41,220 bases of DNA from contig JAHJQG010000036.1 of assembly GCA_018819345.1 (NCBI GenBank), positions 1 to 41,220 of the forward strand, in the 5' to 3' direction. This DNA is from Nanobdellota archaeon (GTDB taxonomy: Archaea; Nanobdellota; Nanobdellia; Woesearchaeales; CG1-02-33-12). The notes beneath the pieces are model-generated. The model did no database searches, had not been told where the DNA came from, and was given only the letters and a program-made list of their open reading frames with translations. The translations under genes and the position numbers were made by a program. Positions 6,075 through 40,627 of this stretch are shown here, piece after piece (position 1 is the first letter of the stretch; each line of letters starts with the position of its first letter).

Positions 6075-6151
6075 AATATCAACCCCTTGTTTAAAGTAAT
6101 CCTACTTATTTAAATAGTTTATCAAATTTTTTCTGAAAATATTCCGGGAAA

Positions 6152-6469
6152 TTACTCAACATCCTCAACTTCTACTTCTTCTCCAGTATCTTCTTTAGTC
6201 TGCTCTTTTAGAACAATATGTTCATATGCCTTGTTCAGGACGAGAATTGCCTTTGGAAGGTCATTTATTCTTAAAGAATTCGTTGATTTCCACTCGCCGC
6301 TCTTGTCTGTGTATCTTCTTTGCAAGGATACTGTTCTGAACTCTACTGGGTTTCCATCCTTGCTTATTCCTTTGTTCTTCCAGATTGTGGCGCTTACTAC
6401 GCCTGTACTAAACTTCTTTTCAGGTATATTTTCCTGATTCATTTGCATCGCCTCCATTGCTTTTCGCAT
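6152..6469 (-). CDS. Small conserved-looking protein, putative ssDNA-binding (PC4/SpoVG-like fold) with acidic tail
   Basis: VSATIWKN...VSLQRRYTDKSGEWKSTNSL...DLPKAILVL pattern; acidic C-terminus EEVEVEDVE; directly upstream of radA. Confidence 0.55.
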   Translation of the reverse strand: MRKAMEAMQMNQENIPEKKFSTGVVSATIWKNKGISKDGNPVEFRTVSLQRRYTDKSGEWKSTNSLRINDLPKAILVLNKAYEHIVLKEQTKEDTGEEVEVEDVE

Positions 6470-17789: not shown

Positions 17790-18163
17790 GGGCACAAATA
17801 GCAATTGAGTTTATATTTCTTGTATGTGTTGCATTTGTAATGCTCTTAATTTTTTTAAAGGTAGTGGGAGACCAGGCAGACGAGCTGAATGAAAAAAAGG
17901 AGTTTATTCTTGTAAAAGACCTTGCCTATAAAATACAGTATGAAATCAACATGGCAACGCAGGTAAAGTCAGGCTATAACAGAACTTTTTTTATACCAGA
18001 AAAGCTTGATAACAAGGATTACACAATAACCAAAACAGAAAATAAAATTACTGTTGGTTTAAAAAACTCAGAGTTCACAATAACTATCCCGGAGATTAAT
18101 GGCAATATAAACAAGAGCAATAACACAATAATAAATATAGGGGGTGTTATTTATCTTAACTAA
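17774..18163 (+). CDS. Minor pilin
   Basis: IRA/QIAIEFIFLV. Confidence 0.82.
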   Translation: MGKHIRAQIAIEFIFLVCVAFVMLLIFLKVVGDQADELNEKKEFILVKDLAYKIQYEINMATQVKSGYNRTFFIPEKLDNKDYTITKTENKITVGLKNSEFTITIPEINGNINKSNNTIINIGGVIYLN

Positions 18164-18659
18164 AGCACAGGTTTTTTCCATTGATTTAATAATAGGGATT
18201 ATTATTTTTGGGTCAGCCATCTTAATCTATTATAAGAGTGCAACAAACCTTTCTGACCAGGATGAGGCATTGCTCGATGACCTTCTTATTGATGCCAAGA
18301 CAATTTCCAGCTCACTAATGAGCCAGGGTTACCCCTATAACTGGAGCAAGGATGATGTGGTGAGAATTGGAATAAGCAATGATAACAGAATTAATGAAAC
18401 AAAGCTTGAAGAGTTTTCAATGATTTCTTACAAGGAAAGCAGAAAGCTTTTTGGAACAATCTATGATTATTATGTTTTTTTCAGGGGAAGAAATAATAAT
18501 ATCATAAGTTTTAATGAATCTCTTGAAGGAGTAGGCAAGCCAGGAGTTAATTCCACAAACATACAGACTGTTGAGAACCCAAAAAAACTTGTTAAGGTAA
18601 CAAGGCTTGTGATTAAGGATCTGGATATTGCGAAAATGGTGATATATTTATGGTATTAA
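18144..18659 (+). CDS. Minor pilin
   Basis: TKA/QVFSIDLIIGIIIF; SQGYPYNW...VVRIGI. Confidence 0.8.
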   Translation: MLFILTKAQVFSIDLIIGIIIFGSAILIYYKSATNLSDQDEALLDDLLIDAKTISSSLMSQGYPYNWSKDDVVRIGISNDNRINETKLEEFSMISYKESRKLFGTIYDYYVFFRGRNNNIISFNESLEGVGKPGVNSTNIQTVENPKKLVKVTRLVIKDLDIAKMVIYLWY

Positions 18660-20479: not shown

Positions 20480-21402
20480 ACAAAAAAAGTATGTTCTTTA
20501 GTATAATTGCAATTGCACTCATATCCCTAATAATATTTTCATTCACAACTTATACTAGCTACAAGCTGAGGGATAAGGTTATGGTTACTGAAACAAGGAT
20601 TTACTCTATGAACAGTTTTATAGATGATATTGAAAAAGATATAGAGAGAGGCCTTTATATCTCAGGATTCAGGTCATTGATGAGCATGGAGCAGTACATA
20701 ACAGATAATGGAATATTTTTGTATGATGTAAACTCCTGCTTTAAAGAAGCTTTTTTGAATGGAACAATTAATAATTCGCAAATGGGCCTTATGAATGAAT
20801 CAACATTTATCAACTGGACTCAAAGAATAAAAGAGCAGGCAATAAAACTGGATATAATAGTTGAGTTTGATGTACATGATGTGACTATCTACCAAAAAAA
20901 CCCATGGGCAGCAAATATTGGCATTAATGTAACACTAAATGTTGAAGATGTTAAGAAAACTGCCTCATGGAAAAGGCCCCTCTACATAACAACAAATATC
21001 AGCATACAGGAATTTGAGGATCCTTTATATGTAATAAACAGCTATGGCAGGGTTACTAACACAATAATAAAAACAAATATTACAGACTTTGTTGTTAATA
21101 ATGACACAACAAACCTTAAAACCCATGTTAATAATTCATATTATATTGAATCAGATACAGCCCCTAGCTTTTTGATGAGGCTGGAAGGAAATCTTTCAAA
21201 CTCATTATATGGCATTGAAAGCCTTGTGAATTTAGAGGAATTCCAGGCACAGGAAGTTCCTATTAGGGATAGAAGCGTTGTTGATTATATATATTTTGGA
21301 GACCAGACAACAACCAACTATAACATTAAGGATATGCCCTCATGGTTTAAGCTGGATGAAGAGCATCTTGAAACATATGAATGCGAGGATTTAACTGAAT
21401 GA
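20470..21402 (+). CDS. Minor pilin-like protein
   Basis: MALNKKS/MFFSIIAIALI; SD GGTGAGG supports ATG 20470; FEDPLY and APSFLMRLEG motifs. Confidence 0.78.
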   Translation: MALNKKSMFFSIIAIALISLIIFSFTTYTSYKLRDKVMVTETRIYSMNSFIDDIEKDIERGLYISGFRSLMSMEQYITDNGIFLYDVNSCFKEAFLNGTINNSQMGLMNESTFINWTQRIKEQAIKLDIIVEFDVHDVTIYQKNPWAANIGINVTLNVEDVKKTASWKRPLYITTNISIQEFEDPLYVINSYGRVTNTIIKTNITDFVVNNDTTNLKTHVNNSYYIESDTAPSFLMRLEGNLSNSLYGIESLVNLEEFQAQEVPIRDRSVVDYIYFGDQTTTNYNIKDMPSWFKLDEEHLETYECEDLTE

Positions 21403-21427
21403 TAGCTTCAGTAAACTTTGATAAAAA

Positions 21428-21895
21428 TTATGTTCTTAGCTTTCTCTTGATTTCTTCCTTTAGTTTTTTAATATAAAGATTAAATTGAAGTTCTACTTCT
21501 TTCCAATCCTCAGAACTTATTGGTGTACCATAATAATTAATTCCATTCCTTTTTGTTCTTACTTTTTCAAAAAAATCCCAGTTGAACTCCAGTTCTGGAT
21601 GTTTTTCACAAAGATATGCAAATAAACATTGGTGCTTATCAATCTTTATATTCTTAAATCTTAAATAAGACTCACTTAACTCATGCAGTGCATCATAATA
21701 TAATTTATAAACGCTATTCCATTGATTACTTTGTTTTGAAAGATTTTTCTTGATAGAATTTGCTGATTCAATATCCCCTTCTGCAATTTTAAGGGTAGCT
21801 TTTATCTTTTCAATATCAGTTTCTTCTATTACAATAAATCTCCCTTCTTTTTTACATTTCAAAAATGCTTCTTTCTGATTTAGGTATTCAGGCAT
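21428..21895 (-). CDS. HEPN-domain putative toxin
   Basis: Helical protein with YYDALHEL and RTKRNGINYYG (R-x4-H-like with Tyr); overlaps the upstream MNT gene. Confidence 0.72.
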   Translation of the reverse strand: MPEYLNQKEAFLKCKKEGRFIVIEETDIEKIKATLKIAEGDIESANSIKKNLSKQSNQWNSVYKLYYDALHELSESYLRFKNIKIDKHQCLFAYLCEKHPELEFNWDFFEKVRTKRNGINYYGTPISSEDWKEVELQFNLYIKKLKEEIKRKLRT

Positions 21896-22436
21896 TTATA
21901 CCCACCCTCACAAAGTCCATATCCCCTTTAATAAGGTTACCCTTAATAATGTTTCTAATTAATCCTTCTCCAAGCTTAGATAAGTCTTTTTTATTTTGAC
22001 AGATAAATAATTGAATATCTCTATGTAGTTTTAATTCGTAATCTACTATTCTAAGTCCTTTAGGATCACCATAAATAAAAATATCGATATCACTGTTCTT
22101 ATACCAATCAGAACGCGAAAAACTTCCAAAAAGAATTATTGTTTTAGCTTTTTCTAAATATCCTAAATGGTTCAAAAGACCACTTTCATATAATTTGGTT
22201 AGTCCAAATATTCTTTTTCTATTTTTATATTTGGGAGAATCATAACTACTTATGTAGTAAGGCATTTTACCTTTTTTCTTTATTCTTTTGATTAATCCTT
22301 CTTTAATAAACTGTTTAAGCCATCTGTCTGCCTTACTTCTAGTAATTTTTGCTCCCTTAACTATTTCTTCAAAATGCCATTCTCTAGTTGGACTTTCAAA
22401 AAATAATTCCACAACTTTTTCTTCTTTACTTTGCAT
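21888..22436 (-). CDS. wHTH-fused minimal nucleotidyltransferase (MNT) antitoxin
   Basis: LFGSFSRSDWYKNSDIDIFI (GS-x10-DxD); N-terminal HTH; start re-assigned to ATG 22436 (MQSKEEK), about 25 nt below the TATA. Confidence 0.85.
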   Translation of the reverse strand: MQSKEEKVVELFFESPTREWHFEEIVKGAKITRSKADRWLKQFIKEGLIKRIKKKGKMPYYISSYDSPKYKNRKRIFGLTKLYESGLLNHLGYLEKAKTIILFGSFSRSDWYKNSDIDIFIYGDPKGLRIVDYELKLHRDIQLFICQNKKDLSKLGEGLIRNIIKGNLIKGDMDFVRVGINA

Positions 22437-22438
22437 AA

Positions 22439-22472
22439 TAGTACCGATAATGGGAACTAATTTATAAACTTT
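22439..22472 (-). promoter_or_regulatory. TA promoter (BRE/TATA) with palindromic operator
   Basis: AAAGTTTATAAA on the minus strand (TATA 22461-22468); imperfect palindrome TAGTACCGATAATGGGAACTA 22439-22459, 16 of 21 positions symmetric. Confidence 0.65.
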
Positions 22473-22648
22473 TCTCTTTTTAACGGAAAACTGCCCTTTG
22501 CTTTTTGTTCTTGATGCATTTCCTTGATTGCTCACTTTGTTCGCTTGATTAGAAAGTTTTGTTTTATATAAATCCTATAAAGCTTACTGCAGAGTAAGAC
22601 CTGATTTTCGATAGATATTTATATTTAAAAGGAATTTTTTAAGATAAG

Positions 22649-23812
22649 ATGGTTCAGGCTCCATTACTAAAAACAGGTGTTGACAGGCTGGTAAGCCTTA
22701 TTAAAGAGAAAAAAAGAATTTCTGTTCCACAGGCAGCAAAAGAGCTTGGTATAAGCCAGGTAGTTGTTGAGGAATGGGCTGACTTTCTTGAGGAGGATGG
22801 CATCATAAGCATTGATTATAAATTTGCAACCCCCTGGCTTATTGAGAGAAAACTGAAAAAAGAGGAGATTGAAAAAAAAATCAAGGAGTTTCATGGGAAA
22901 AAAGATGTTATTGTAAGAAGGTCAGAGTCATTATTAAGCTTTCTGGATAGAGAAGGAGAAAGTATCTCAAAGATTAGAGAAGAATTCAAAAATATAAGAG
23001 AAGATATACACACTGAAGCAGATAATGTAAAAAAAGAACTTAAAGAGCTTGAAAGATATGAGGAACTGAAAAAGAAAGCTGATGATCAGCTAAAAAAACA
23101 AGACCAGGTTTTTGCAGACAAAATCAAGCAAATGGATGGGCAGATTATCAGAGCCCAGAGGAAATACTCAGAACTCCTGAAAGAAATAGGTGCAGAGGAA
23201 AAAATAATAAAAACAGAAAGATTAAAGACAGGCTCAATAAGAAAAACTGAGGAATCATTAAAGCAGAAAATTAAAAAAATTGATGGTAGTATAGATAAAG
23301 TCAAGCAGAAGATTAAGTCAGAAGATATCTATATTGAAGACTTAGAATCCCATATAAAAAGATTAAAAGAGCTGGCAGAGGACACAAGAGAAACAATTAA
23401 TCTGCAAAAAAAGAAAATCATGCCACTAGCCAAAGAAAGCAGGGAGTATGAGAAAAAAGTAATGCAATCGCAAAAAGAGATTTTAAAAAAGGTTTTTGAA
23501 GGGGGCGGGATAATCAAAAAGGATATCAATGAAATTAAAAGACTATCAGACAAATTCAAGGAGTTCTTTGAAAAAAGGATGGAAACAACAAATCTGATTG
23601 AGAAAATCAATGATGACAGAAACAGTCTGAAGAAAGAATTAAATGAGTTTATTGCAAAGGCAAAGGCATTCAGCATATCATCACAGTCAGCAGATATCCA
23701 AAAGCAGATTGATATAATGGAAAAAAAGTTCAAGGAGGTTGACCAAAAAAAGAATATTTTTGAAAAAGAGATTAGGGAATTATGTAGCCTAATCAAAAAA
23801 AAGGGTTTTTAG
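22649..23812 (+). CDS. wHTH plus long coiled-coil protein preceding the pilus ATPase
   Basis: TGVDRLVSLIKEKKRISVPQAAKELG...VEEWADFLEEDGIISIDY, then about 300 aa of K/E-rich heptads. Confidence 0.75.
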   Translation: MVQAPLLKTGVDRLVSLIKEKKRISVPQAAKELGISQVVVEEWADFLEEDGIISIDYKFATPWLIERKLKKEEIEKKIKEFHGKKDVIVRRSESLLSFLDREGESISKIREEFKNIREDIHTEADNVKKELKELERYEELKKKADDQLKKQDQVFADKIKQMDGQIIRAQRKYSELLKEIGAEEKIIKTERLKTGSIRKTEESLKQKIKKIDGSIDKVKQKIKSEDIYIEDLESHIKRLKELAEDTRETINLQKKKIMPLAKESREYEKKVMQSQKEILKKVFEGGGIIKKDINEIKRLSDKFKEFFEKRMETTNLIEKINDDRNSLKKELNEFIAKAKAFSISSQSADIQKQIDIMEKKFKEVDQKKNIFEKEIRELCSLIKKKGF

Positions 23813-23856
23813 GAAATTTAGTTTAAAACTAAAAATCTAAAAAAGAGGTTGATTTT

Positions 23857-25443
23857 ATGGCAGTAAAAGATGAATATAATTTTATTTCTAATGAAATCCC
23901 TATAAAAATAAGGATTTACACAGAAAAAAAAGAGTTTGTGCCAATATATGATGTCTCTATATCCAGCATAAGCAAGAACACAGAGATAATACTTGAGAAG
24001 ATAAGGCAGGAGCTTATCACAGAGGTCAACCTTGGCATAATTGATATAATAGACATAAAGAAGAGCGATCTGATTGAACAGAGATTTAAGGAAACAATTG
24101 ACCTGTTAGTAAAAAAGCATTTCCCCGATGTTAACAAGAGAACAATGAAATTCCTTAAGTCATATCTAATACAAAAAAGCCTTGGCATGGGCAATATAGA
24201 AATCCTTATGAATGATAATAATCTTGAGGAGATAGCCATTAATAATGCAGAAGAGCCGGTCTGGATATATCATAGAAAGCATGGCTGGCTTAAGACAAAT
24301 ATAACCATTGAGAGTGAAGAGCAGATAAAGCACTATGCATCTTTAATAGGCAAGAAAGTAGGAAGGCAGATAACTGTCCTTGAGCCATTAATGGACGCTA
24401 ACCTCAGTACAGGCGATAGGGTAAACTCAACACTCTTGCCAATCTCACTCAAGGGAAACACAATAACCATAAGAAAGTTCGCAGCAAAGCCATGGACAAT
24501 TACAGACTTTATAAAGAACAAGACAATTTCTGCTGAGGCAGCAGCCCTTGTCTGGCTTGGTGTTCAGTATGAGTTATCAATAATAATATCTGGTGGAACT
24601 GCAACTGGAAAAACCTCTATGCTCAATGTTGTCTCAAACTTCTTCCCTCCAAACCAGAGAATAATATCAATTGAGGATACGCATGAGATACAACTGCCTA
24701 AATTTTTACATTGGATCCCCATGATAACAAGGCTGCCTAATCCCGAAGGAAGAGGTGCTATAACAATGCTTGACTTATTGGTTAATTCGCTTAGGATGAG
24801 GCCGGACAGGATTGTTGTTGGAGAGATAAGAAGAAAAAAAGAGGCAGAAGTACTATTTGAGGCAATTCACACAGGCCATTCTGTCTATGCAACTGTTCAT
24901 GCAAACGATACAAATGAAACAATAACAAGACTGACAAATCCCCCTATTGAGGTTCCAAAATCAATGCTCCCAGCTATTTCAATGATCCTAGTCCAGTACA
25001 GGAATAGGAGAACTGGAATAAGAAGAACCTTTCAGATATCAGAAATACTTCCTGACAGCAGCACAAGTGTTTTAATCCAGCTGAATATAAAGAAAGACAA
25101 GCTTGAAAAAGCAAATAATTCTGTTTCTGTTATGAAGACCCTGGAGATGTTCACTGGTATGACAAAGAATGAGATAAATAAAGATATCAAGGAAAAAGAG
25201 CTTGTTCTGAAATATCTTGTTAAACATAACATAGATACTGTTGATGATGTTGGAGGGGTTATGGCTGAGTACTATACAGATAAGGATAACTTCATGAAGA
25301 TTGTAAGATCAAACAAAGCACTTATGTTTGAGAAAAAAGAAACAGCAGAAATTGAAGAAAAGAAGAAATCTGTTAATTTAACTAAGAAAAAGGTGGCTCT
25401 AAAAAAGAAGAAAAGTGCTAGACCAATTAGGAAGAAAAGGTGA
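23857..25443 (+). CDS. Type IV pilus / type II-IV secretion assembly ATPase (CpaF/TadA/VirB11 family)
   Basis: Walker A GGTATGKT, Asp box SIEDTHE, LRMRPDRIVVGE, His box HTGH...TVHA. Confidence 0.95.
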   Translation: MAVKDEYNFISNEIPIKIRIYTEKKEFVPIYDVSISSISKNTEIILEKIRQELITEVNLGIIDIIDIKKSDLIEQRFKETIDLLVKKHFPDVNKRTMKFLKSYLIQKSLGMGNIEILMNDNNLEEIAINNAEEPVWIYHRKHGWLKTNITIESEEQIKHYASLIGKKVGRQITVLEPLMDANLSTGDRVNSTLLPISLKGNTITIRKFAAKPWTITDFIKNKTISAEAAALVWLGVQYELSIIISGGTATGKTSMLNVVSNFFPPNQRIISIEDTHEIQLPKFLHWIPMITRLPNPEGRGAITMLDLLVNSLRMRPDRIVVGEIRRKKEAEVLFEAIHTGHSVYATVHANDTNETITRLTNPPIEVPKSMLPAISMILVQYRNRRTGIRRTFQISEILPDSSTSVLIQLNIKKDKLEKANNSVSVMKTLEMFTGMTKNEINKDIKEKELVLKYLVKHNIDTVDDVGGVMAEYYTDKDNFMKIVRSNKALMFEKKETAEIEEKKKSVNLTKKKVALKKKKSARPIRKKR

Positions 25444-26267
25444 TTTATATCAGTAATGTATTAATCAAAAGGATTGCAAGGACTCTTCCTGGGCTTAACA
25501 CAAAGTTAAAACAAGCAGGCATGTTTGACACACCCGAGGAATTTGTCAAGAAGACACTCTTATCTACATTCTACCTTACAACAGGAATAACTGCCCTGGT
25601 TGTAACAGTACTTACCAAACTGGAGGTATTATCAAGCATAATCTATTTTGCTTTCCCGCTGTTTATGTTCTTCATTATGTTTTTCTACATGCTCAAGGTG
25701 CCTGATGTTAAGATATTAAGAAAGGAAAGAGAGATAAGCAGGGAGATTGTTTTTGCAGGCCGATTTCTTATAATAGAGCTTGAATCAGGGGTTTCTCTGT
25801 ATGATGCAATGGTCAATGTCTCAAAAAACTATAAAGTAATTGGAGAATACTTTAAGGAAATAATAGACAAGGTATCTATGGGAACAACAATGGAGGATGC
25901 AATAAATGAAACAATAGAAACAACGCCTTCATCAAACTTAACAAAAGTTTTGTGGCAGATACTTAACTCGCTTAGGACAGGGGCAGATATCTCAAGCTCG
26001 CTTTCAAGCATACTTGACCAAATTGTTCGTGAGCAAATCATTGAAGTAAAGGAATATGGAAGAAAGCTGAACCCATTGGCAATGTTCTATATGATGGTGG
26101 CAATTATAGTGCCTTCATTGGGCATAACAATGCTTATTGTACTTACAACATTTATCTCAATCAAGATTGATTTGGCTGCTTTGCTAACAATAGCATTATT
26201 TCTTGGATTTATTCAATATATGTTTCTCTCAATTATAAAATCCTCAAGACCTGCGGTGGAAATATGA
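25440..26267 (+). CDS. Type II secretion system F / TadC-like membrane platform protein
   Basis: ELESGVSLYDAM, FKEIIDKVSMG, QILNSLRTGADI; several TM helices. Confidence 0.88.
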   Translation: MIYISNVLIKRIARTLPGLNTKLKQAGMFDTPEEFVKKTLLSTFYLTTGITALVVTVLTKLEVLSSIIYFAFPLFMFFIMFFYMLKVPDVKILRKEREISREIVFAGRFLIIELESGVSLYDAMVNVSKNYKVIGEYFKEIIDKVSMGTTMEDAINETIETTPSSNLTKVLWQILNSLRTGADISSSLSSILDQIVREQIIEVKEYGRKLNPLAMFYMMVAIIVPSLGITMLIVLTTFISIKIDLAALLTIALFLGFIQYMFLSIIKSSRPAVEI

Positions 26268-27376
26268 AGATAAAAGAACTGTTTAAATCATCAAAAAAAA
26301 CAAAGGAGACAAAAGAAAAGAGTCAGGAAAAGAGTATTGAGGAAAGAGTCACGTTATACAGGAAGCTTCAGAAACAGAAAAAAAAGAAGTCGGTGATGGA
26401 GCACAGAAGGAATAGATTAAGGTATTACTTACAGAGAGCAGGTTTTGTTGTAGAATCAAACAAGTTATCAAAAATAATTTTTAACTTATGTGTTTTCCTG
26501 AATTTAATAATCTCATTTTACCTTATTTATCGTTTCTCAACTGACTTGAAATATGGTGTTTTATATGTTGGCCTTGTTATGTTTCTTGTATGGGCATTTT
26601 TATTTATTATGCTCCTGCTAATGCTGTGGTTACTATTTTATTTTATCATTGACCTAAGGATATTTAAGAGAAGGATTGGAATAGAAGATGTACTTGCAGA
26701 CTTTTTACAATTAACATCTGCTAATATAAGGGCAGGCATGCCTATTGACAGGGCATTATGGTATGCTGTAAGGCCGCAATTTGGGGTTTTAGCCAGTGAG
26801 ATAGAGATGGTTGCAAAAGAGACAATGAGTGGTGAAGATCTTGAGGGAGCTCTTAGAAAGTTTGCAGAAAAATATGATTCAATCATGCTAAAACGTTCAA
26901 TAAATCTTCTTGTTGAAGGTATAGCTGCTGGCGGTGAAATAGGTGATTTGCTTAATAAAATAGCAATTGATATACAAGAGTCAAGGATTATGAAGAAAGA
27001 GCTGTCAGCCAATGTCACAACATATGTCATATTCATTACATTTGCAACAATAGTTGCAGCACCATTATTGTTTGCATTGTCGAGCCATCTGCTTTTTATA
27101 GTAAGCAACCTTATGCTAAAGCTTGACGTACCTTCGGGAATAACAAATTTTTCTATCAATCTCTCTGGGGCTGGTATGTCTATTAAGGATTTTAGGATAT
27201 TTGCTATTACATGCCTTGTTATAACATCTTATTTTTCATCTGTGATAATTGCAACAATAAAAAAAGGGGAAATAAAAGCAGGAGTAAAATATATCCCAAT
27301 ATTCATGATCTCAACTATTGTGTTGTTCTTAATATTTTCAGTAGTTATTGGCAAGCTGTTTGGAAGCATTATCTGA
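26264..27376 (+). CDS. Second TadC/GspF-like membrane platform protein
   Basis: LADFLQLTSANIRAGMPIDRAL, FGVLASEI, GGEIGDLLNKIA. Confidence 0.88.
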   Translation: MKIKELFKSSKKTKETKEKSQEKSIEERVTLYRKLQKQKKKKSVMEHRRNRLRYYLQRAGFVVESNKLSKIIFNLCVFLNLIISFYLIYRFSTDLKYGVLYVGLVMFLVWAFLFIMLLLMLWLLFYFIIDLRIFKRRIGIEDVLADFLQLTSANIRAGMPIDRALWYAVRPQFGVLASEIEMVAKETMSGEDLEGALRKFAEKYDSIMLKRSINLLVEGIAAGGEIGDLLNKIAIDIQESRIMKKELSANVTTYVIFITFATIVAAPLLFALSSHLLFIVSNLMLKLDVPSGITNFSINLSGAGMSIKDFRIFAITCLVITSYFSSVIIATIKKGEIKAGVKYIPIFMISTIVLFLIFSVVIGKLFGSII

Positions 27377-29219: not shown

Positions 29220-29258
29220 TTATTAAAAAATTAAAAATATCCTGAGGTGTATAAAAAA

Positions 29259-32204
29259 ATGGAAAATAAAATTTTAGGTAAAAAAGTAAGATTTTTTTGT
29301 TTTGCTGTGATATTGTTGATATTTTTATTGTCTATAATAACTTTGCCATTAGTAACAGGTTATGATGATCCTGGTCCTATTACACACAAGGAATGTGTAA
29401 ATGGGGAGTGCAAAGAGGTGTCTGGCTCCGGACGCAATACTTGCAAGTATGATAGTCAATGTACTCACAAGGAATGCGTAAATGGGCGTTGTGAAAGTGT
29501 TATTGGTCAAGGAATTAATAAATGCAATTATCCAAGTGATTGCAAGGATGAAGAAAAATGTTCCTGTATGGCTTGTGTAGGAGGCTGTGATCCTGGCTGC
29601 AAAATGCAGACCTTTTATGGAGATGACTGCCCTTGCGTTGATGACTGCTCCGAATGCGGCGGTGAAGGTCCTGACGAACCACTAGTACCAACACCAAAGT
29701 GTGGAAATAATATAAAAGAATATGGTGAAGAATGTGATGGCACTGATGTCGGTTACTGCACAAATGGTTGTGATACTAATTGTAAATGCAAACCCTCATT
29801 AAGTTCAGTATGCACAGACTCAGATAATGGAAAAGATTATTATAAAAAAGGAACAGGTGAAGGATGGAATACAGATACTGAAAAAGTTTCTTTTTACGAT
29901 ACTTGTTATAAAAGTTATTGGGCAAATTTAGTTGATTCTTGTGAAGGTAATGATTGTTATTTAGCTGAAAAATATTGTGATGGAAAATATGTAAAAACTG
30001 AGTTAAGTATACCTTGCCCTAATGGGTGTAATGATGGAGCATGCATAAAAGGAAAAGAACCTTATTGTAGTGCAATAGGAACAAGAAGTGAGGGTTGGTA
30101 TCAAAATAATAAATTAATTAAATGGGATAACTGTAAGGGATGTCACGCAATTTGTAAAGCTATTGGCACAAAATCAGAGGGTTGGTATAGTTCTTGCACA
30201 AACTCATTAATAAAATATGAGAAATGTGGTGTTACAATAACAAATTGTGTTGGAGAAGGTGAGAAAGGTTCTGTGTTTAATGCTGACCCTAATGATGATG
30301 TTTGTTGTGCAGGATTAGAAAAAATAAAGGATTCAGTTCCAATTTCATATCCAGTAAAAGGATGTGCTTTGAGTAGAAGTGGTTTTGTATGCACTAACTG
30401 TGGAGATGGCAGATGCGGTTTAGGAGAAAACTACTGCAACTGTCCAGAGGATTGTAAAGAAGAGGAAGAAATACCTTGTAACACACAAGAGATTTTTGCA
30501 AAATGTGATTCTCTTAAGGATAGCTATAAATCATTTTCTTGTAAGACAGTAAAACCATGTGGGCGCTATGTTCTGTTTAGTGACATAACAACAAGTTGCC
30601 CTGATATACTTTCAACCCCCTATTGCAGTGCAGGAGATTGCTATGGTGTGAAAAAAGATAGTACTGATGATCCTTCCCCACAACCAGAGTGTATAAAAGA
30701 GGGTGAATTGGGATGGCCTCCTGCTGTTTGCTGTAAGGGCCTTAAAAATGTGGGTAATTCTAAACCAGTTAATGGAGTATGTACAAGTTATAAGAATCCT
30801 AGTTTTGTATGCACAAAGTGTGGAGATGGCAACTGTGGTTTAGGTGAGAATTACTGCAATTGTCCAGAGGATTGTAAAGAAGAAACAATATGCACAGACT
30901 CTGATGGTGGTAAGGATTATTATGTTAAAGGAACAGCAAGTGGTGAAGCTTATTGGAAAGATGAATATGTAACTAAGACAGATGCTTGCTATAATTGCAA
31001 TAATTTAGCTGTTACATTTGATTCTTGTGATACTGGACCTGATTGTTGTGTTTCTGACTGGTATTGTAATATGGATGGTAAAGTATCTTCAGCATCTCTT
31101 AATTGCCCATATGGCTGTGAGGATGGAGCCTGTATTGAGGAAGGAACAGAAAAAATGAAGATTGATGGCAGATATTTAATACTAAATGAAAACTTCCAAG
31201 ATGATGTCTATTCATCACCTATTGCCTTTTACACAGGTGTTCTTCCAATTGGAAAGATAGTGAGAACATTAATTAACTTTGATTTAAGTGGTCTTGAAAA
31301 CAAGGAGATAAAAAAGGCAGGGTTAGTAATAAACAAGATACCAATGCTGCACGGAGAGGAATATGGAAAACAAACAACAGAAGTGCATAAAGTCATGGAA
31401 AAATGGTATTTCCACAGTGCAAGCTGGAACAATCAGCCAAGGTTTGATACAACAATAGTCAGTTCACAAGAGATAAATGAGAATGGAAAATATACATTTG
31501 ATATAACACAAATAATGGATTACTTAATCAAACATGAATCTGGAGTATTGCTCAAAGCAGAGAATGAAGAAGAAACTAACCTGAAGAAATTTGATGAGGC
31601 ATACCTAAACATCTGGTACACTGCAGAGGAAGAAGAAACAAAAAGCTGTAAAGAAATGGGTGGCAACTGCAGATATCTGTTTGGATGCAAGAGTGATGAA
31701 GCAGAATCAGACTATGAATGTCCATTCTGGGGAAAATGCTGCATGCCTTATGAACCTAAATGCATAGATGATGATGAGAACTGCCCAGATGGATGCACTA
31801 TAGAAAACGACAATGACTGTGAACCAGAAATTCCAGAAATATTTGATTGTGGAAATGCTGGTCCTGATAATCCTGATTCAGAAACAGCTGGTCAATGTTT
31901 CATAGAAAAATTTGATGAATGTAGTCCTGCAAATTATTCTGTTTCAATAGACCTTGGACCACTTGGTGGCTTAACAACATATTACTATGAAATAATTGGT
32001 CATGAGAATGAGCTTTGTAAAATGAAAACAAAATATCTTGCAGTTATAAATCCAGAATGGGTTGGAAAAGAAATGATTTGCAATTATAACAATTCCAAAG
32101 AACTTACAGAAGCTAGTCAAGAGGTTTTCGATAGTTTTAATGAAGATGAAGAATTAGGAGACTGTGAAGGTGCATTGTATTATCTTATTAAAAACCCAGA
32201 GTAA
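29259..32204 (+). CDS. Large Cys-rich modular surface protein with a DNRLRE-like domain
   Basis: Signal/TM N-terminus; duplicated modules HKECVNG, CTDSDxGKDYY, AIGTxSEGWY, CGDGxCGLGENYCNCPEDC; RTLINFDLS...SWNNQP...FDIT...GVLLK; ATG 29259 preferred to GTG 29247. Confidence 0.8.
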   Translation: MENKILGKKVRFFCFAVILLIFLLSIITLPLVTGYDDPGPITHKECVNGECKEVSGSGRNTCKYDSQCTHKECVNGRCESVIGQGINKCNYPSDCKDEEKCSCMACVGGCDPGCKMQTFYGDDCPCVDDCSECGGEGPDEPLVPTPKCGNNIKEYGEECDGTDVGYCTNGCDTNCKCKPSLSSVCTDSDNGKDYYKKGTGEGWNTDTEKVSFYDTCYKSYWANLVDSCEGNDCYLAEKYCDGKYVKTELSIPCPNGCNDGACIKGKEPYCSAIGTRSEGWYQNNKLIKWDNCKGCHAICKAIGTKSEGWYSSCTNSLIKYEKCGVTITNCVGEGEKGSVFNADPNDDVCCAGLEKIKDSVPISYPVKGCALSRSGFVCTNCGDGRCGLGENYCNCPEDCKEEEEIPCNTQEIFAKCDSLKDSYKSFSCKTVKPCGRYVLFSDITTSCPDILSTPYCSAGDCYGVKKDSTDDPSPQPECIKEGELGWPPAVCCKGLKNVGNSKPVNGVCTSYKNPSFVCTKCGDGNCGLGENYCNCPEDCKEETICTDSDGGKDYYVKGTASGEAYWKDEYVTKTDACYNCNNLAVTFDSCDTGPDCCVSDWYCNMDGKVSSASLNCPYGCEDGACIEEGTEKMKIDGRYLILNENFQDDVYSSPIAFYTGVLPIGKIVRTLINFDLSGLENKEIKKAGLVINKIPMLHGEEYGKQTTEVHKVMEKWYFHSASWNNQPRFDTTIVSSQEINENGKYTFDITQIMDYLIKHESGVLLKAENEEETNLKKFDEAYLNIWYTAEEEETKSCKEMGGNCRYLFGCKSDEAESDYECPFWGKCCMPYEPKCIDDDENCPDGCTIENDNDCEPEIPEIFDCGNAGPDNPDSETAGQCFIEKFDECSPANYSVSIDLGPLGGLTTYYYEIIGHENELCKMKTKYLAVINPEWVGKEMICNYNNSKELTEASQEVFDSFNEDEELGDCEGALYYLIKNPE
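30382..30883 (+). repeat. Intragenic direct repeat of about 82 bp (30382-30463 and 30802-30883)
   Basis: GTTTTGTATGCAC...TGTGGAGATGGCA...TGTCCAGAGGATTGTAAAGAAGA occurs twice. Confidence 0.85.
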
Positions 32205-36155: not shown

Positions 36156-37304
36156 TCACTTTTTTTCTCTTCTTTCACTCAGAAAAATTATAACTGCCAG
36201 AATAATAATCCCCAGCAGTATATTGTATTTGTAGGAGATTATGAAGCCAATGATTTTAGCCAGAAAATTTGAATAATAGAAAAAAAATATTAATAAGACG
36301 CCAATTAAAACAAACATATACTTAAGGAATTTGTTCCTCTTATCGGTTTTTTTCAGGGCTTTTGGCTTTTTCTTTTTTTTCTTTGGTTTTTCTCTTTTTT
36401 CAAACCATTCCTCTTCAGACTCTTCTTCTGTGAAAAAGTCAATAATTGCATTCCAGATTCTTTTAAGGATTGCCTGTTTCTTTCTTTTTCTGGGCTTCTT
36501 CTTTTTCTTAATTTTTTTAGGCTTTCCCCCTTTAGGTTCCTCTATTTCTTCTGTAAAGAAATCAACTATCCCGTTCCAGGCGCTTTTTAATGCGCCTTTT
36601 TCTTTTCCCTGGATTTTTTCTATCTCACTAATCTTTTTTTTATCCTCTTTTCTTATTTCAGGATGTTTTTTCAGAAAGTCAATTATCCTCCTGAACCTTG
36701 AATCAAGCCTGTTTAGGTTTCTCTTAAAATAATTATTTTCAACTGAATTTTTTCTTACTGACTGGATTTCCTGCCTCAAGTCAGAGAGCTGTTTATTGAA
36801 GTATGATTTATCAATGAATCTTTTTTCCAGCTCATCAAGCTCTTTTTTCATGCTGCTGATGTCCTGCGCTCTTTTTTTAATTCTTGCATCAAACTTGTTT
36901 GCCTGCATCTTAAATTCATTCACATCAACAACAGTATTTTTTAGATCTTCAAATTCTTTTTTGATTCCATTGGCTTTTTCAAAGCTCTTAATCATAGAAT
37001 TAATTGATTTCTTCAGCTTTAATGCTTCTTTCAGCTCTTTTTTTAGCTTCTCTCTTTTTTTTATCTCCCTTAAGACCCAATTATGCTTTTCATTTAAGGA
37101 ATCTATTTCGCTTTGAAAGTCCTGGTTTTTAACAAAATCTTCCCTTATCTTAGAGAGTTTATTGTTTATATCCTGGACAAGATGCTCCTTTTCTTTGGTC
37201 AGGTTAATTATATCCCTTTTTACTGCAGAAAAAGATGATTTCAGGTTTTTATTTAAATTATAAAGCCTTATTTCTATATTTTCCTCTTTACCCCCAGAAA
37301 CCAT
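36156..37304 (-). CDS. Coiled-coil protein with repeated WNxIxDFFTEE motif and two C-terminal TM helices
   Basis: LKSSFSAVKRDI N-terminus; K/E-rich; BRE/TATA AAAAGTTTATATA at 37330-37342. Confidence 0.75.
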   Translation of the reverse strand: MVSGGKEENIEIRLYNLNKNLKSSFSAVKRDIINLTKEKEHLVQDINNKLSKIREDFVKNQDFQSEIDSLNEKHNWVLREIKKREKLKKELKEALKLKKSINSMIKSFEKANGIKKEFEDLKNTVVDVNEFKMQANKFDARIKKRAQDISSMKKELDELEKRFIDKSYFNKQLSDLRQEIQSVRKNSVENNYFKRNLNRLDSRFRRIIDFLKKHPEIRKEDKKKISEIEKIQGKEKGALKSAWNGIVDFFTEEIEEPKGGKPKKIKKKKKPRKRKKQAILKRIWNAIIDFFTEEESEEEWFEKREKPKKKKKKPKALKKTDKRNKFLKYMFVLIGVLLIFFFYYSNFLAKIIGFIISYKYNILLGIIILAVIIFLSERREKK

Positions 37305-37375
37305 TTTTAATTTTAAAGTAATAATTAACTATATAAACTTTTCGATAGTTAAAGGTCAATAGGGCTTTTTATTTT
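37108..37375. repeat. Left copy of split direct repeat (37108-37235 and 37344-37375)
   Basis: Matches 39600-39726 (about 10-11 differences in about 128 nt by eye) and 39727-39758 (31/32 identical). Confidence 0.92.
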
Positions 37376-37479
37376 ATAAAGAACACACCAGTCACCTCTC
37401 CTTTCAGTTGTTATAAAACTAGTTTGATTATGTTATTTTAATTTGTGATTTACTGTTGGCAACATATAGTTCTCTCCTC

Positions 37480-37677
37480 TCAATATAAATAAGATTTTGT
37501 ATAAATAAGATGTTGCCTAGGTTTTATTTTATTATAAAATTGAGACTTATCTTTCCCACAGTGAATTACTTTAAACTTTGAGTTCATTGTTTTGATTATT
37601 ATATCTGCACCTTCCTTATGTTTCTTGATCTCCATAATTTCACCCTCAACTATTCTTTCTATTTGACTTGGATCCAT
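37480..37677 (-). CDS. Small hypothetical protein
   Basis: 65-aa ORF with SD-like GGGAG upstream; no family recognised. Confidence 0.45.
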   Translation of the reverse strand: MDPSQIERIVEGEIMEIKKHKEGADIIIKTMNSKFKVIHCGKDKSQFYNKIKPRQHLIYTKSYLY

Positions 37678-37839
37678 TTTATTCTCCCAGCTGCGTTAGT
37701 AGTGCTGTATTTTCCTGTTGATAAAGGAACTATCATCTATTTAAATATTTTTCTATTTAGTAGTGGTAATTTTTATAATATACGGTTTTTAGTTTGATTA
37801 AATATAAAAACTTAGGAAATATTTTAGTGTTATTGATTC

Positions 37840-39114
37840 TCACGAATAAAAATAAGGAGTTATAGTCATATCTTTACTTGTACATCTCCGTTTTCCTGTT
37901 TTAATATAATGAAGAGGACACCCACCATAACATACTGGTAAATAATAACACTTCCGGCATTTTTCATCCTTGAAAGGATTTGATTTTTGATACCACCTTG
38001 CTATATGCATCGAATTTAGTTGCATATTGCCTGTTTTATCAATATAGCCAATATCCGCTGTTTCTGTCGACTCGTTTATACATTTCCATATTTTTAAATC
38101 AGGGGTAACATAAAAAAAATTAATTCCTCCATCTGATTCACAATATTGCAGATAATAAGCACTTTTAAGTATACTAAATCCATACTTATCTGCTTCATCA
38201 TAAAATTTTTTTAAATCAAAAATTGTATTACTATTAGATACATTGAAATGGCTAGTTGAATAGATTGGCCTAAAATATATATTTATTTTTTTTCTCTCGT
38301 CTTTATCAAACAAATTAAAAATCGACTTAACATCATCAAGACTTTGATTTAATAAATTTACTCGTAGTATAAACTGAATATTTGATTTTATTTTAATAGC
38401 ATATCGTACTGCTGTTGTAAAATTATTGACAATTGTGTCAAAGGTTTCACCATTATTATGTAATACACGAAGTTTATTGTGGGTTTCTTTACGACTGTCT
38501 AATGTAACTTGAATTGAAACACAATTATACTTTAATAATGCACTAACCATATCTTTATCTAATAAGAATCCATTTGTTACAATACTAGTACTTAACTCAT
38601 AACCATATTTTTTACTTTGTATTAATAGGTAATCTAGATAAGAAAAAATTTCATCTTTTTTTAAAAGAGGTTCTCCACCAAATAAACTAATATGTACTCT
38701 TTTTTTATTACAAAAATTTTTATTAGCAAACTTCTTTAAAACATCAAAATAGTTTTTAACTTCATTATTTTCTTTTCCGGGTCCTGCCTCAAAACAATAG
38801 GGACATTTAAAATTACATCGTAATGTTGGTACTAATGCAACAGTAATTTTATCTGTTTGGAAATAATTTGCATTATATAAGTATTCAAGAATTTCAATTT
38901 CATTGATATTATCTGATAAAATAAAACCATTTTTTATCAATATATCTTGGTATTTCTTATTTTTTCCTGTACATGGATCTTTTTTTCTTAATATAGCCTT
39001 TACTTTTCCTAACTCAGCTTTTTTGACCTTAATAGACGCCCTGCTAAATGAATTAAATAAAAAAATAGAATCTTTTTCCAAAAAAAAATTATTATACAGG
39101 CTGGCCTTATACAT
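37840..39114 (-). CDS. Radical SAM/SPASM peptide maturase with N-terminal RRE-like region
   Basis: CNFKCPYC, FGGEP, VTNG, QVTLD; SPASM C...IWKC...CRKCYYLPVCYGGCP...C; N-terminal SLYN..LFNSFS..LIKNGFI. Confidence 0.93.
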   Translation of the reverse strand: MYKASLYNNFFLEKDSIFLFNSFSRASIKVKKAELGKVKAILRKKDPCTGKNKKYQDILIKNGFILSDNINEIEILEYLYNANYFQTDKITVALVPTLRCNFKCPYCFEAGPGKENNEVKNYFDVLKKFANKNFCNKKRVHISLFGGEPLLKKDEIFSYLDYLLIQSKKYGYELSTSIVTNGFLLDKDMVSALLKYNCVSIQVTLDSRKETHNKLRVLHNNGETFDTIVNNFTTAVRYAIKIKSNIQFILRVNLLNQSLDDVKSIFNLFDKDERKKINIYFRPIYSTSHFNVSNSNTIFDLKKFYDEADKYGFSILKSAYYLQYCESDGGINFFYVTPDLKIWKCINESTETADIGYIDKTGNMQLNSMHIARWYQKSNPFKDEKCRKCYYLPVCYGGCPLHYIKTGKRRCTSKDMTITPYFYS

Positions 39115-39154
39115 ACTTCTCTCTCAATAATTTCCTTATATTCTTGATGGCAAA

Positions 39155-39193
39155 GTTGAAGTGAGTGAAAACTCACGCTTCCGCGTACTCAAC
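39155..39193 (-). promoter_or_regulatory. Structured intergenic RNA element between precursor and maturase
   Basis: Minus strand GUUGAG-U-ACGC(GGAA)GCGU-GAGU(UUUC)ACUC-AC-UUCAAC can form a three-way junction with a GNRA loop. Confidence 0.6.
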
Positions 39194-39218
39194 ACTACAT
39201 ACAAAGAGATTAAGAGTT

Positions 39219-39461
39219 TCAGTTACAAGAACCGTTTCCTGTACAGCCACAGGCGTCAAGCCCTAATCTTCGTGTTGGTGTAAGTTCAATTGTATCTGGT
39301 TTAACCACTGCTTCATTAATTACCTTCATAATTTCTTCCGGTTTCGTTTGTTCTGCGTATATTTGATCACCTGTATACACATCTTGTGTCTGGTATGCTC
39401 TGTCTTCTTTTTCCTTTCCTGGAACAGAACTTAACTTTTGTTCTAATGCTTGGCTTACCAT
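39219..39461 (-). CDS. Putative RiPP precursor peptide
   Basis: 80 aa; charged leader and C-terminal core DACGCTGNGSCN; SD GGGGGT; directly upstream of the rSAM/SPASM gene. Confidence 0.78.
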   Translation of the reverse strand: MVSQALEQKLSSVPGKEKEDRAYQTQDVYTGDQIYAEQTKPEEIMKVINEAVVKPDTIELTPTRRLGLDACGCTGNGSCN

Positions 39462-39520
39462 TTTATTTTACCCCCTATTTTTTCAGTTTAGTAATTAATA
39501 TTATACTAATAAACATTGAA

Positions 39521-39533
39521 ATATATAAACTTT
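39521..39533 (-). promoter_or_regulatory. Archaeal BRE/TATA promoter of the precursor-maturase operon
   Basis: AAAGTTTATATAT on the minus strand, same motif as other promoters in the window. Confidence 0.55.
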
Positions 39534-39599
39534 GTGTTGATTTTTCCGGATGATTTCCAAAACAATGATTTCTAATGGTTTTCTCATCCCTTTTCACAA

Positions 39600-39758
39600 T
39601 CGCTTTGAAAGTCCTGTCTTTTAACAGAATCTTCCCTTATTCTAGAGAGTTTATTGTTTATATCCTGAACAAAATGCTCTTTTTTTTGGTCAGGTTAATT
39701 ATATCCTTTTTTACTGCAGAAAAAGAGATAGTTAAATGTCAATAGGGCTTTTTATTTT
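39600..39758. repeat. Right copy of split direct repeat; includes the recombinase 3' end and a decayed fragment of the 36156..37304 gene
   Basis: See 37108-37375; the 108 nt at 37236-37343 are absent from this copy. Confidence 0.92.
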
Positions 39759-40550
39759 TTCCATGGCTGTTTTTGATACATGGGTGTATACCTGGGTTGT
39801 CTCAAGCCTTGAGTGGCCCAAAAGCCTTTGTATATACCTTATGTCAATGCCATGCTCAAGAAGATGTGTTGCAAAGCTGTGCCTCAGGCTGTGAGGTGTT
39901 ACTTTCTTTTTTATGCCTGCTTTTTCAGCTGCTTTTTTGACAATAAGCTCTACTGCCCTTAATGAGTATTTATTGTTCCTGTTTGTCTTGAAGATAATAT
40001 CTTTTTTCTCAATATCTAATGTTTTTAGGTTTTTCTTTAATTTTGGCGAGAGCATTACTATCCTGTCTTTGTTTCCCTTTGCAAGCTTTATATGGATTAT
40101 GTTCCTGTTAAAATCAATATCTTTCCATCTTAAATTAATTATCTCGCTTGCCCTCATCCCAGAAGCATACATCAGCAGCATAATTGTCCTGTGGCCGAAG
40201 TTCTTAGTGCAGATAATCATATTTTCAATTTCTTTTCTTGAAAGGATTACAGGGAGCTTTTTGTCCCTTTTCAGGTTTGGTGTTTTTTCAATAATCCTGT
40301 TTATTGATTTATCCTGTTTTGCCTTAATGGCCAGATAAAACTTGATTGCAAAACCAGCAACCCTTACTGTTTCCTTGCTTTTTCCCTTATCAATAAGATT
40401 CAGCAGGAATTCCCTTGGACCAAGGCCTGATTCAATAAACTTGCCAACATGAAACATGTAAGCGCTTATTGTCTTTTTAGAATAGCCTTTAAGCTTAAGC
40501 TCATCTAGCAATAATTCTTTCCAGTTAGCATCATACAGGGCCCTGTTCAT
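39732..40550 (-). CDS. Tyrosine recombinase (XerA/IntI-related, N-terminal SAM-like domain)
   Basis: YSKKTISAY; YASGMRASE (R), KGNKDR (K), HSLRHSFATHLLE (HxxR), LLGH, TTQVYTHV (Y); C-terminal KSPID; TATA-like AAAAGTTTATAA 40577-40588. Confidence 0.95.
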   Translation of the reverse strand: MNRALYDANWKELLLDELKLKGYSKKTISAYMFHVGKFIESGLGPREFLLNLIDKGKSKETVRVAGFAIKFYLAIKAKQDKSINRIIEKTPNLKRDKKLPVILSRKEIENMIICTKNFGHRTIMLLMYASGMRASEIINLRWKDIDFNRNIIHIKLAKGNKDRIVMLSPKLKKNLKTLDIEKKDIIFKTNRNNKYSLRAVELIVKKAAEKAGIKKKVTPHSLRHSFATHLLEHGIDIRYIQRLLGHSRLETTQVYTHVSKTAMEKIKSPIDI

Positions 40551-40627
40551 CGTAAAGAGGCCCCATCCTTCCTAACTTATAAACTTTTACCTCTTTTTTT
40601 CGGATTATTCCTCCTTAAACCGCAAAA

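Follow-up and report, generated by a model that had tools for sequence, protein, structure and literature searches.

The 41,220-nt stretch analysed here (the window; contig JAHJQG010000036.1 of assembly GCA_018819345.1, assigned to Nanobdellota) carries on its minus strand, between positions 37840 and 39461, a gene for an 80-aa peptide followed by a gene for a radical S-adenosylmethionine (rSAM) enzyme. This pair is probably a two-gene cassette for a peptide that is made by the ribosome and modified after translation (RiPP), in which the leader of the precursor would dock on a RiPP recognition element (RRE) of the maturase, and the core would be cross-linked through Cys thioethers. We read the cassette as a new, unnamed precursor/maturase family inside the known RRE-rSAM-SPASM kind of RiPP systems. 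Comparative sequence evidence supported the view that the peptide and the maturase form a real, conserved precursor-maturase unit. With one peptide and one enzyme, the cassette comes close to the smallest size possible for a RiPP system, and for this reason a direct test in Escherichia coli is possible.

The features of the cassette are given below, with coordinates in the window and the evidence in brackets.

39219..39461, minus strand: precursor peptide open reading frame (ORF), 80 aa plus stop (ORF call and alignment)
39330..39461, minus strand: lineage-specific N-terminal extension, residues 1-44 (absent from, or different in, other family members)
39261..39329, minus strand: family-conserved leader, M45-G67, MKVINEAVVKPDTIELTPTRRLG, with the invariant Asn (family alignments and complex model)
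39222..39260, minus strand: core, LDACGCTGNGSCN (LDAC-x-CTGN and a third Cys in 28 of 28 peptides)
39115..39218, minus strand: intergenic spacer (weak hairpin and T-run at 39174-39187)
37840..39114, minus strand: rSAM/SPASM maturase, 424 aa (Pfam, NCBIfam, alignment, AlphaFold2 and Foldseek)
38851..39114, minus strand: RRE-like N-terminal domain of the maturase, about residues 1-88 (AlphaFold2, Foldseek versus CteB, modelled interface)
37882..38142, minus strand: SPASM-type region of the maturase, C325 to C411, seven Cys (alignment of 24 relatives and CteB alignment)
39522..39533, minus strand: candidate B recognition element and TATA box (BRE/TATA), AAAGTTTATATA (consensus match only)
39470..39475, minus strand: Shine-Dalgarno (SD)-like GGGGGT (9-14 nt 5′ of the peptide ATG)

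A peptide family with a fixed core and variable leaders

The first-pass annotation, made from the sequence, had described an 80-aa peptide with a Cys-free leader and the terminal sequence ACGCTGNGSCN upstream of an rSAM gene, and both ORFs were recovered at the positions listed above. The peptide ends in LGLDACGCTGNGSCN, with its Cys confined to residues 70, 72 and 78, and a gap of 104 nt separates its stop codon from the start of the maturase gene on the same strand.

A pattern scan over one genome per species matched 117 stretches, of which four were confirmed, collapsing to three loci. These close maturase loci came from two Woesearchaeota (L001 and L002, with 95% and 66% maturase identity) and from Methanoperedens (L003, 72%). 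The presence of upstream peptides beside homologues had been set beforehand as a test of the pairing, and a matching peptide was found at all four loci examined, the window included, in each case as a same-strand small ORF with the core motif, 32-104 nt 5′ of the maturase. The L001 peptide has 84 aa and ends in RRLGLDACGCTGNGSCR, and those of L002 (MENELIVEVVNGALVKPEAMDSVPEPLLGLDACGCTGNSNCL) and L003 (MEDESIIEIINEAVIKTEATELILTQKLILDACTCTGNCPKY) have 42 aa each. The degenerate DNA pattern for the core occurred once in each of these three genomes, at the cassette locus, and a backward control pattern gave zero occurrences. It is very improbable that the small ORF and the enzyme gene are neighbours by chance and that the true target is some other protein or a small molecule. 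Such an explanation would fit the lack of any family match for the small ORF in the libraries searched, but it has to face an adjacency kept in 4/4 loci across Woesearchaeota and Methanoperedens, with maturases 66-95% identical, as well as an invariant core motif and a complex model that passes while its controls score 0.00 (see below).

Further members were brought in by profile searches. A word-index search with the four-peptide profile returned seven peptides, and a full HMMER profile search of 1.84 billion cluster representatives returned 22 at E<=0.001, including five at E<=1e-10; together with the loci, the profile matches made up 28 distinct peptides. The sequence LDAC-x-CTGN with a third Cys was present in 28/28 peptides, although the query profile already contained this motif, which makes the count partly circular. 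The third Cys follows the motif immediately in 10/28 peptides (CxCx3C) and two residues later in 18/28 (CxCx5C), and it is the last residue in 12/28. Thus, the CxCx5C spacing put forward in the first-pass annotation did not stand as a conserved feature, and what is invariant is LDAC-x-CTGN with a third Cys at +1 or +3. The leaders were of two types, with 17 peptides carrying '(V/I)(V/I)NEA' as in the window and 11, from unnamed metagenomic sources, carrying a Lys/Asn-rich 'MKIxKVN'; in the alignment, a single leader Asn was invariant across both types. Despite the circular count, the alignments show a real contrast, the core being fixed and the leaders free.

The length of the family unit is about 33-45 aa, and the 80 aa of the window peptide are atypical, the conserved unit beginning near M45. 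An N-terminal extension of 44-48 residues was restricted to the lineage of the window (the window, L001 and P0122), and two other peptides (P0127 and P0130) had different, shorter extensions. Between the window and L001, the extension differed at 26/132 aligned bases and 20/44 residues and carried two 6-nt indels, the frame staying open, with nonsynonymous (dN) and synonymous (dS) divergences of 0.24 and 0.18 (dN/dS ~1.3); for the conserved 36 residues, dN was 0.077 and dS 0.082. Judging from these comparisons, the first 44 residues of the ORF are lineage-specific and unconstrained, and M1 and M45 are both candidates for the translation start.

The precursor family, with its sharply defined core, is absent from NCBIfam and Pfam. 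NCBIfam gave no match above chance for the window peptide and 23 family peptides (two hits, E 0.09 and 0.22), Pfam gave none for the window peptide, and the NHLP-leader model TIGR03793 had no real hit in either the window peptide or the 23 family peptides. A search of the ESM Atlas with the window peptide also returned no match, and in viral contigs neither the degenerate core pattern nor a maturase relative was found.

Maturase architecture and predicted leader binding

The maturase matched the Pfam model Radical_SAM (PF04055) with 68 bits (cut-off, 29.5), Fer4_12 was matched as well, and the CX3CX2C motif at C100, C104 and C107 places the enzyme in the radical SAM superfamily. Eight further Cys (C198, C325, C345, C386, C389, C395, C399 and C411) were invariant or nearly so in the alignment of 24 relatives. 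The full SPASM Cys set that had been claimed for this enzyme was recovered from its seven-Cys pattern and from the alignment of this region to CteB 350-419, in which the Gly of the Gx4C SPASM motif is Leu in the window enzyme, the Pfam SPASM model being silent at E<=1.

An AlphaFold2 model built on the alignment of the 24 relatives reached a mean pLDDT, the predicted score of the local distance difference test, of 82.4, with residues 1-84 forming three to four strands and then three helices. The top Foldseek match of this model was CteB (5WGG; E 1.1e-16, 446 aligned columns, full length), and further matches were TigE, SuiB, anSME, SkfB and ChlB. The RRE-like N-terminus that had been noted beforehand was therefore borne out at the level of structure, by AlphaFold2, by the Foldseek match to CteB and by the complex model described next, with hidden Markov models silent.

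The leader-maturase complex was modelled from the maturase alignment and an alignment of nine peptides, whose first row was the 36-aa form of the window peptide. The interface score ipSAE was 0.72, against 0.00 for the best of three controls; the mark applied is attained by 116/157 solved complexes and 2/215 mismatched pairs, a calibration that is rough here, own alignments having been used. Contact agreement across the runs was at least 66% and partner pLDDT at least 54. In the model, leader residues 1-12 and 14 contact the edge strand (maturase residues 18-31) and the helices (55-79), and the motif residues L24 and D25 extend into the barrel. These modelled contacts correspond to the usual RRE binding mode, and the model supports binding of the leader by the RRE.

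Relationship to known maturase families

Among NCBIfam models, the best match of the maturase was CefB ('Cys-every-fifth', NF038107), with 186.7 bits against a cut-off of 600, followed by the CrpC family (TIGR04463; 179.9 versus 525) and the Clo7bot maturase (TIGR04334; 167.1 versus 600). The geopeptide maturase (119.4 versus 400), PapB (NF047865; 87 versus 340) and the SCIFF maturase (TIGR03974; 70.8 versus 425) came lower. Because all of these scores lie far under their cut-offs, the enzyme is regarded as kin to the maturases of Cys-rich peptides and a member of none of these families. The first-pass annotation had not recognised the family, and this agrees with these scores and with the peptides having no family match above chance.

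A homology search returned 527 proteins at E<=0.001, of which the best 120 were considered and, after 13 short or partial rows had been dropped, 107 were scanned. None of these 107 matched an NCBIfam model at E<=1e-60 except for four weak matches to TIGR04463, the best at 8.7e-62. In a FastTree tree of the 107 homologues, midpoint-rooted for drawing only, the window fell within a 17-row clade (support 98) that mixes Woesearchaeota, Methanoperedens and Thermoplasmatota, and in which the two Woesearchaeota sequences are not sisters. The large adjoining group holds proteins of about 40% identity, the few named ones being from Clostridia and an unclassified bacterium, and the homologues from Cloacimonadota and Spirochaetales lie on a more distant branch. 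A metagenome scan with the 24-maturase alignment gave, among the matches listed, only distant rSAM proteins (<=34% identity) and no close member, and a plasmid search gave 38 maturase-related records, all with <=30.3% identity.

In a further search, over 400 sampled Halobacteriota genomes together with that of the query, 7/401 matched the A1 profile at E<=1e-40, only Methanoperedens being close (752 bits). The six distant homologues scored 146-225 bits, and 4/6 lie directly 3′ of NHLP-leader precursors (L099, L100, L101 and L103) of 108-120 aa, with an NHLP leader (TIGR03793, 65.5 bits) and the core GGCVGCDGVGGCGFCEC. These precursors differ from the window peptide in their long leader, the window peptide matching no NHLP model. 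At the remaining two distant loci, a filter for small Cys-containing ORFs gave no obvious precursor. Three of the four NHLP precursors carry QVQIKNQ-type C-terminal repeats after the core, and a TGA lies inside the L103 maturase.

The closest characterised family member is CrpC from Methanococcus voltae (TIGR04463), characterised in 2026 and reported to have three [4Fe-4S] clusters and a predicted RRE, and to install ranthionine cross-links in the CrpA motifs CAGM, CAVD, PCAGD and CPLV, joining Cys i to about i+3 (PMC13692751). The window maturase resembles CrpC as an archaeal rSAM enzyme with an RRE, an rSAM core and a SPASM domain. Their substrates differ, CrpA being a large many-Cys repeat protein (PMC13692751), whereas the window family has a substrate of 33-84 aa with three Cys and one invariant motif. 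The best solved relative, both by sequence (E 1.2e-21) and by fold, RRE included, is CteB of the CteB/CteA (thermocellin) system (PDB 5WGG/5WHY), a thioether-forming SPASM enzyme whose leader is bound by the RRE. Identity to CteB is 17-19%, proximity residues 3, 5 and 6 of its active site differ (see below), and the CteA core is unrelated. The matches to CefB and to the Clo7bot maturase CtpM extend over residues 5-400. These two enzymes, too, are predicted to mature Cys-rich peptides; the plasmid-borne CtpM shares only 29% identity with the window maturase, no paper was found for 'Cys-every-fifth' in the literature, and the CefB and Clo7bot families are themselves only predicted. The maturases PapB (of freyrasin) and SCIFF, which act on ranthipeptides, share the enzyme architecture and the logic of Cys as donor. 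Freyrasin and SCIFF cores have repeated Cys-acceptor motifs or six Cys. Since both the best-matching families and the distant Halobacteriota loci pair with Cys-rich peptides, the whole neighbourhood of this enzyme acts, as far as can be judged, on Cys-rich cores.

Proposed chemistry

In the proposed mechanism, the conserved (V/I)(V/I)N-E-A stretch of the leader would dock as a strand on the N-terminal RRE of the maturase, and the radical-SAM active site would in this way be offered the short, near-invariant core D-A-C-x-C-T-G-N-(x0-2)-C. The maturase would then abstract a hydrogen atom from acceptor residues of the core and join the Cys sulfur to them, giving a small peptide with two or three rings. 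By analogy with CrpC/TIGR04463 and CteB, thioether formation is the most likely activity of the window maturase. Thr and Asn are favoured as acceptors because both invariant Cys have an invariant i+3 residue (C-G-C-T and C-T-G-N), which fits the CrpC pattern, and it is on this spacing that we infer them.

Several points weigh against this proposal. The i+3 rule cannot cover all three Cys, because the third has no i+3 residue in 12/28 peptides, and the partial circularity of the motif count has been noted above. All family scores are far under their cut-offs, so the transfer of function spans a long distance, and neither the Pfam SPASM model nor the PqqD/RRE models gave a hit in the maturase. 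The passing complex model may owe its score to a likeness to the solved leader-RRE complexes of the superfamily and not to this particular pair. RRE-bearing rSAM/SPASM enzymes also make C-C links, C-O links and other products. The catalytic-site proximity profile, a set of six active-site residues defined after PMC10288494, reads F108, F145, V179, T204, I346 and N347 in the window maturase, where CteB has F, F, T, S, H and Q; with two identities and two similar residues, the profile does not separate sactionine, ranthionine and other products, the sactisynthase StsB having Y, T, I, S, K and L. Moreover, a core conserved above its leader, as the alignments suggest here, is unusual for antimicrobial RiPPs.

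A possible, though rather unlikely, alternative is that the same pair carries out another chemistry, such as a C-C or C-O cross-link, oxidation or removal of the Cys side chain as in anSME, or a rearrangement, with the Cys serving as ligands or recognition elements. The functional diversity of RRE-SPASM enzymes is in keeping with this, as are the presence of SuiB, anSME, SkfB, ChlB and TigE besides CteB among the structural matches, the non-diagnostic proximity residues and the low family scores. Nevertheless, the three best family matches and the distant homologues pair with Cys-rich cores, the core has no aromatic residue of the kind needed for cyclophane or streptide-type links, and thioether formation is the activity of both CrpC, the nearest family member to have been characterised, and CteB, the top match by structure. 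Thioether cross-linking of the core is therefore the reading that we retain as probable.

Compared with the leader, the core is strongly conserved, unlike in most antimicrobial RiPPs. This leaves room for a product of one fixed structure, such as a metal-binding or redox peptide, and is a hint that the structure and the function of the product are both fixed. A doubtful but more specific version of this idea is that the core, which recurs with two unrelated types of leader, in varied archaea and in unnamed metagenomic hosts, marks a peptide-derived small molecule of fixed structure rather than an antimicrobial. This might be a thioether-bridged tri-Cys peptide with metal-binding or redox function that would follow a logic like that of the precursors of pyrroloquinoline quinone or mycofactocin, and the cassette would spread as a self-sufficient two-gene unit of ~2 kb, entering chromosomes by way of a circular intermediate and with no recombinase gene in the unit.

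Insertion and horizontal acquisition

The host had been taken for a probable DPANN archaeon, and this assignment agreed with its genome (895 kb in total, 72 contigs, estimated completeness of 87%), with the archaeal core genes of the window (RadA, RPA, TFS, NMD3, an archaeal CCA-adding enzyme, besides pilin-type class III signal peptides) and with its nearest named relative, the L001 genome, which is labelled Candidatus Woesearchaeota and shares the cassette at a protein identity of 95%, the flanks being at 77-92%. The features that frame the cassette are as follows.

37376..39726, no strand: inserted DNA (versus the empty site in relative G165)
37449..37825, minus strand: segment B, holding a 65-aa ORF at 37480..37677 (minus strand); 95.5% identical to L001 3184-3560
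37108..37375, no strand: flanking direct repeat, left copy (the coiled-coil gene's 5′ portion, 108 nt missing from the right copy, and 32 nt left over from the 3′ end of the recombinase gene)
39600..39758, no strand: flanking direct repeat, right copy (identity of 92% over 128 nt and of 97% over the next 32 nt)
39732..40550, minus strand: tyrosine recombinase, XerA-like, chromosomal (kept in relatives without the cassette)

In G165, a genome of the same family, the coiled-coil gene (with its 5′ end) and the recombinase gene (with its 3′ end) meet directly, and because this junction is uninterrupted there, positions 37376-39726 of the window are regarded as an insertion. The insertion is flanked by imperfect direct repeats, with 37108-37235 matching 39600-39726 at 92% and 37344-37375 matching 39727-39758 at 97%, and the right copy does not have 108 nt that are present in the left copy. 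The L001 cassette occupies another site, adjoining a Rad50 gene and flanked by a duplicated gene fragment (87%) and a 79-nt piece (95%), and this Rad50 site is empty in the window's own genome (contig C36). The L001 repeats lie at 2432-3268 and 5520-5806 of that locus. At both sites, the second repeat copy lacks the start/promoter stretch of the adjacent gene, which amounts to 108 nt in the window (coiled-coil gene) and ~540 nt in L001 (Rad50).

Within the insertion, a 1.7-kb segment A with the promoter, peptide and maturase is 93.8% identical to L001, and segment B (377 nt) 95.5%. Their order is A-B in the window and B-A in L001, so that segment B lies on the other side of the peptide-maturase segment there, and the junctions are exact in both. 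This swap of segment order fits a circular intermediate of ~2.1 kb, although other insertion histories are possible, as native sequence upstream of the Rad50 gene also includes the ~88 nt with which B begins. The peptide, the maturase and the 65-aa ORF make up a unit of ~2.1 kb that was inserted between the coiled-coil gene and the XerA-like recombinase gene. Both junctions of the insertion were bridged by a single contig in each of two runs, one a marine run (3733 nt, covering 36953-40562 with 136 differences) and one a lake-water run (3521 nt, 36787-40308, 135 differences), these being the runs X4 and X5; because two independent contigs bridge both junctions, the insertion is not an assembly artefact.

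The deviant codon usage that had been noted for the maturase was confirmed by counting, with CGN used for 7/14 of its Arg codons, compared with 668/7428 (9%) in 523 long host ORFs (98.6th percentile), and with a GC content at third codon positions (GC3) of 0.165 against a mean of 0.285 (3rd percentile). The GC content of the window falls to 25% at 38-39 kb. No maturase match at E<=1e-30 was found in the 400 other sampled genomes of the phylum, one same-genus and one same-family genome included. Together with the empty site in G165, the other locus in L001 and the mixed clade of the tree, these results agree with the horizontal acquisition suggested in the first-pass annotation, which is now well supported at the sequence level. 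The different loci and the empty-site controls in related Woesearchaeota offer a concrete case of minimal genomes acquiring secondary-metabolite genes.

As had been stated, no transporter or protease lies alongside, none being encoded in the inserted 2.35 kb. The recombinase scored 204.8 bits with the XerA model (cut-off, 220) and 184.4 with the integron integrase model (cut-off, 265), and it is not regarded as the cassette's own gene because it is present in relatives without the cassette. An integron gene cassette, which would be expected beside attI upstream of intI and with attC sites, was considered and rejected, the insertion lying at the 3′ end of the recombinase gene, the recombinase being below the integrase cut-off and the flanks being long host-gene repeats that are not attC-like. 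An integrative mobile element exploiting Xer (IMEX) acting at dif was likewise considered and not supported. No flanking direct repeats were found at L002 and L003, and the unique pieces at the insert ends (73 nt and 54 nt; 227 nt in L001) gave no informative match.

The gene order near the recombinase is variable, because the same-genus and L001 genomes (G314 and G401; loci L086, L088, L089 and L091) differ from the window and G165 agrees with it. In the former, the recombinase is followed by ArsR-like and cysteine-desulfurase-like genes and the coiled-coil gene is not next to it; the more distant G165 has the window's order. At L002, a tRNA-Asp gene (5295-5368) lies 20 nt 3′ of the maturase stop on the opposite strand.

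The 65-aa ORF of segment B (37480..37677, minus strand) travels with the cassette, and a 91-aa relative is found near the L001 cassette (6114..6389). It had no match in PHROGs or NCBIfam and no paralogue in the host genome. An ESM Atlas model suggests a small OB/TOBE-like barrel, which is taken as a lead only.

Expression signals, selection and occurrence

The archaeal BRE/TATA and SD sequences reported for the cassette were found 5′ of the peptide ATG, as AAAGTTTATATA and GGGGGT, both as consensus matches only. The 12-mer AAAGTTTATATA begins 72 nt 5′ of the ATG and has 12 copies genome-wide, one of them 5′ of the neighbouring coiled-coil gene. In the host genome, SD-like words peak 9-13 nt 5′ of long ORFs and are present in 21% of 679. 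In the spacer, the fold z-score of the hairpin was -1.98, barely above shuffles, with 1 terminator-like site versus 0.8 expected; neither the hairpin nor the T-run was conserved in L002 or L003, and an Rfam search of the window gave no match.

Part of the stretch was detected in 20 of the 24 public runs listed, from 16 studies of groundwater, lake water and marine samples, one of which may be the source of the window DNA. A lake-water RNA library gave three contigs on the 5.7-kb query stretch, at 39027-39285 (1 difference), at 39261-39456 (6 differences) and, for the third, in the coiled-coil gene. Taken together, the first two reach from within 5 nt of the peptide's ATG, across its ORF and the spacer, to nt 88 of the maturase gene. 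A transcript that starts 5′ of M1 and enters the maturase is thereby weakly hinted at, with the reservation, on the unfavourable side for an active cassette, that the contigs show neither strand nor level and that DNA carry-over is possible.

Between the window and L001, the maturase had a dN of 0.024 and a dS of 0.109 (dN/dS ~0.22), which indicates, from these two sequences, that it is under purifying selection between the two lineages. These values bear on the idea that the cassette is a silent or decaying passenger of mobile DNA from which no modified peptide is made in the host. This idea draws on the foreign composition, on an insert that encodes no export or protease function, and on the occurrence in 1/401 genomes of the phylum sample. 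It is improbable in view of the two intact ORFs, the dN/dS of the maturase, an arrangement kept at ~96% identity in the marine and lake contigs, and the RNA-library contigs that span the peptide gene.

Predicted and known RiPPs in archaea

We know of no modified peptide from a DPANN archaeon, and literature searches, which were not aimed at this point, gave genome-mining predictions only. Predicted rSAM RiPP clusters have been reported across archaea, DPANN included, with 221 biosynthetic gene clusters in Nanoarchaeota according to PMC12144867; a RiPP in DPANN is thus not new in itself, because predicted clusters are reported there. The supplementary table of that paper, as far as available, lists the Methanoperedens assembly of L003 with a thioamitide region on another contig, and the L003 cassette contig is not present in it. 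Since this contig has no entry in that supplement, and since NCBIfam and Pfam lack the family, standard mining seems to miss it. A literature search for the core strings CGCTGNG, DACGCTGN, CTCTGNC and ACGCTGN found no paper, TIGR04463 was found in a single one, and the available part of the supplement of PMC10288494 held none of the archaeal names searched for.

Other features of the window

A cluster at 17358-27376 comprises genes for pilin-like proteins that bear class III signal peptides, for an ATPase of T2SSE type and for two membrane proteins of T2SSF type, and it resembles an archaeal locus for type IV pili or adhesion filaments. At 1314-4015, a PrcB_C-domain protein is encoded ahead of a 757-aa S8 subtilase that has a CUB-like insert. 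A 985-aa ORF at 29247-32204, whose sole family match is a CBM96-type carbohydrate-binding module, may encode a surface protein.

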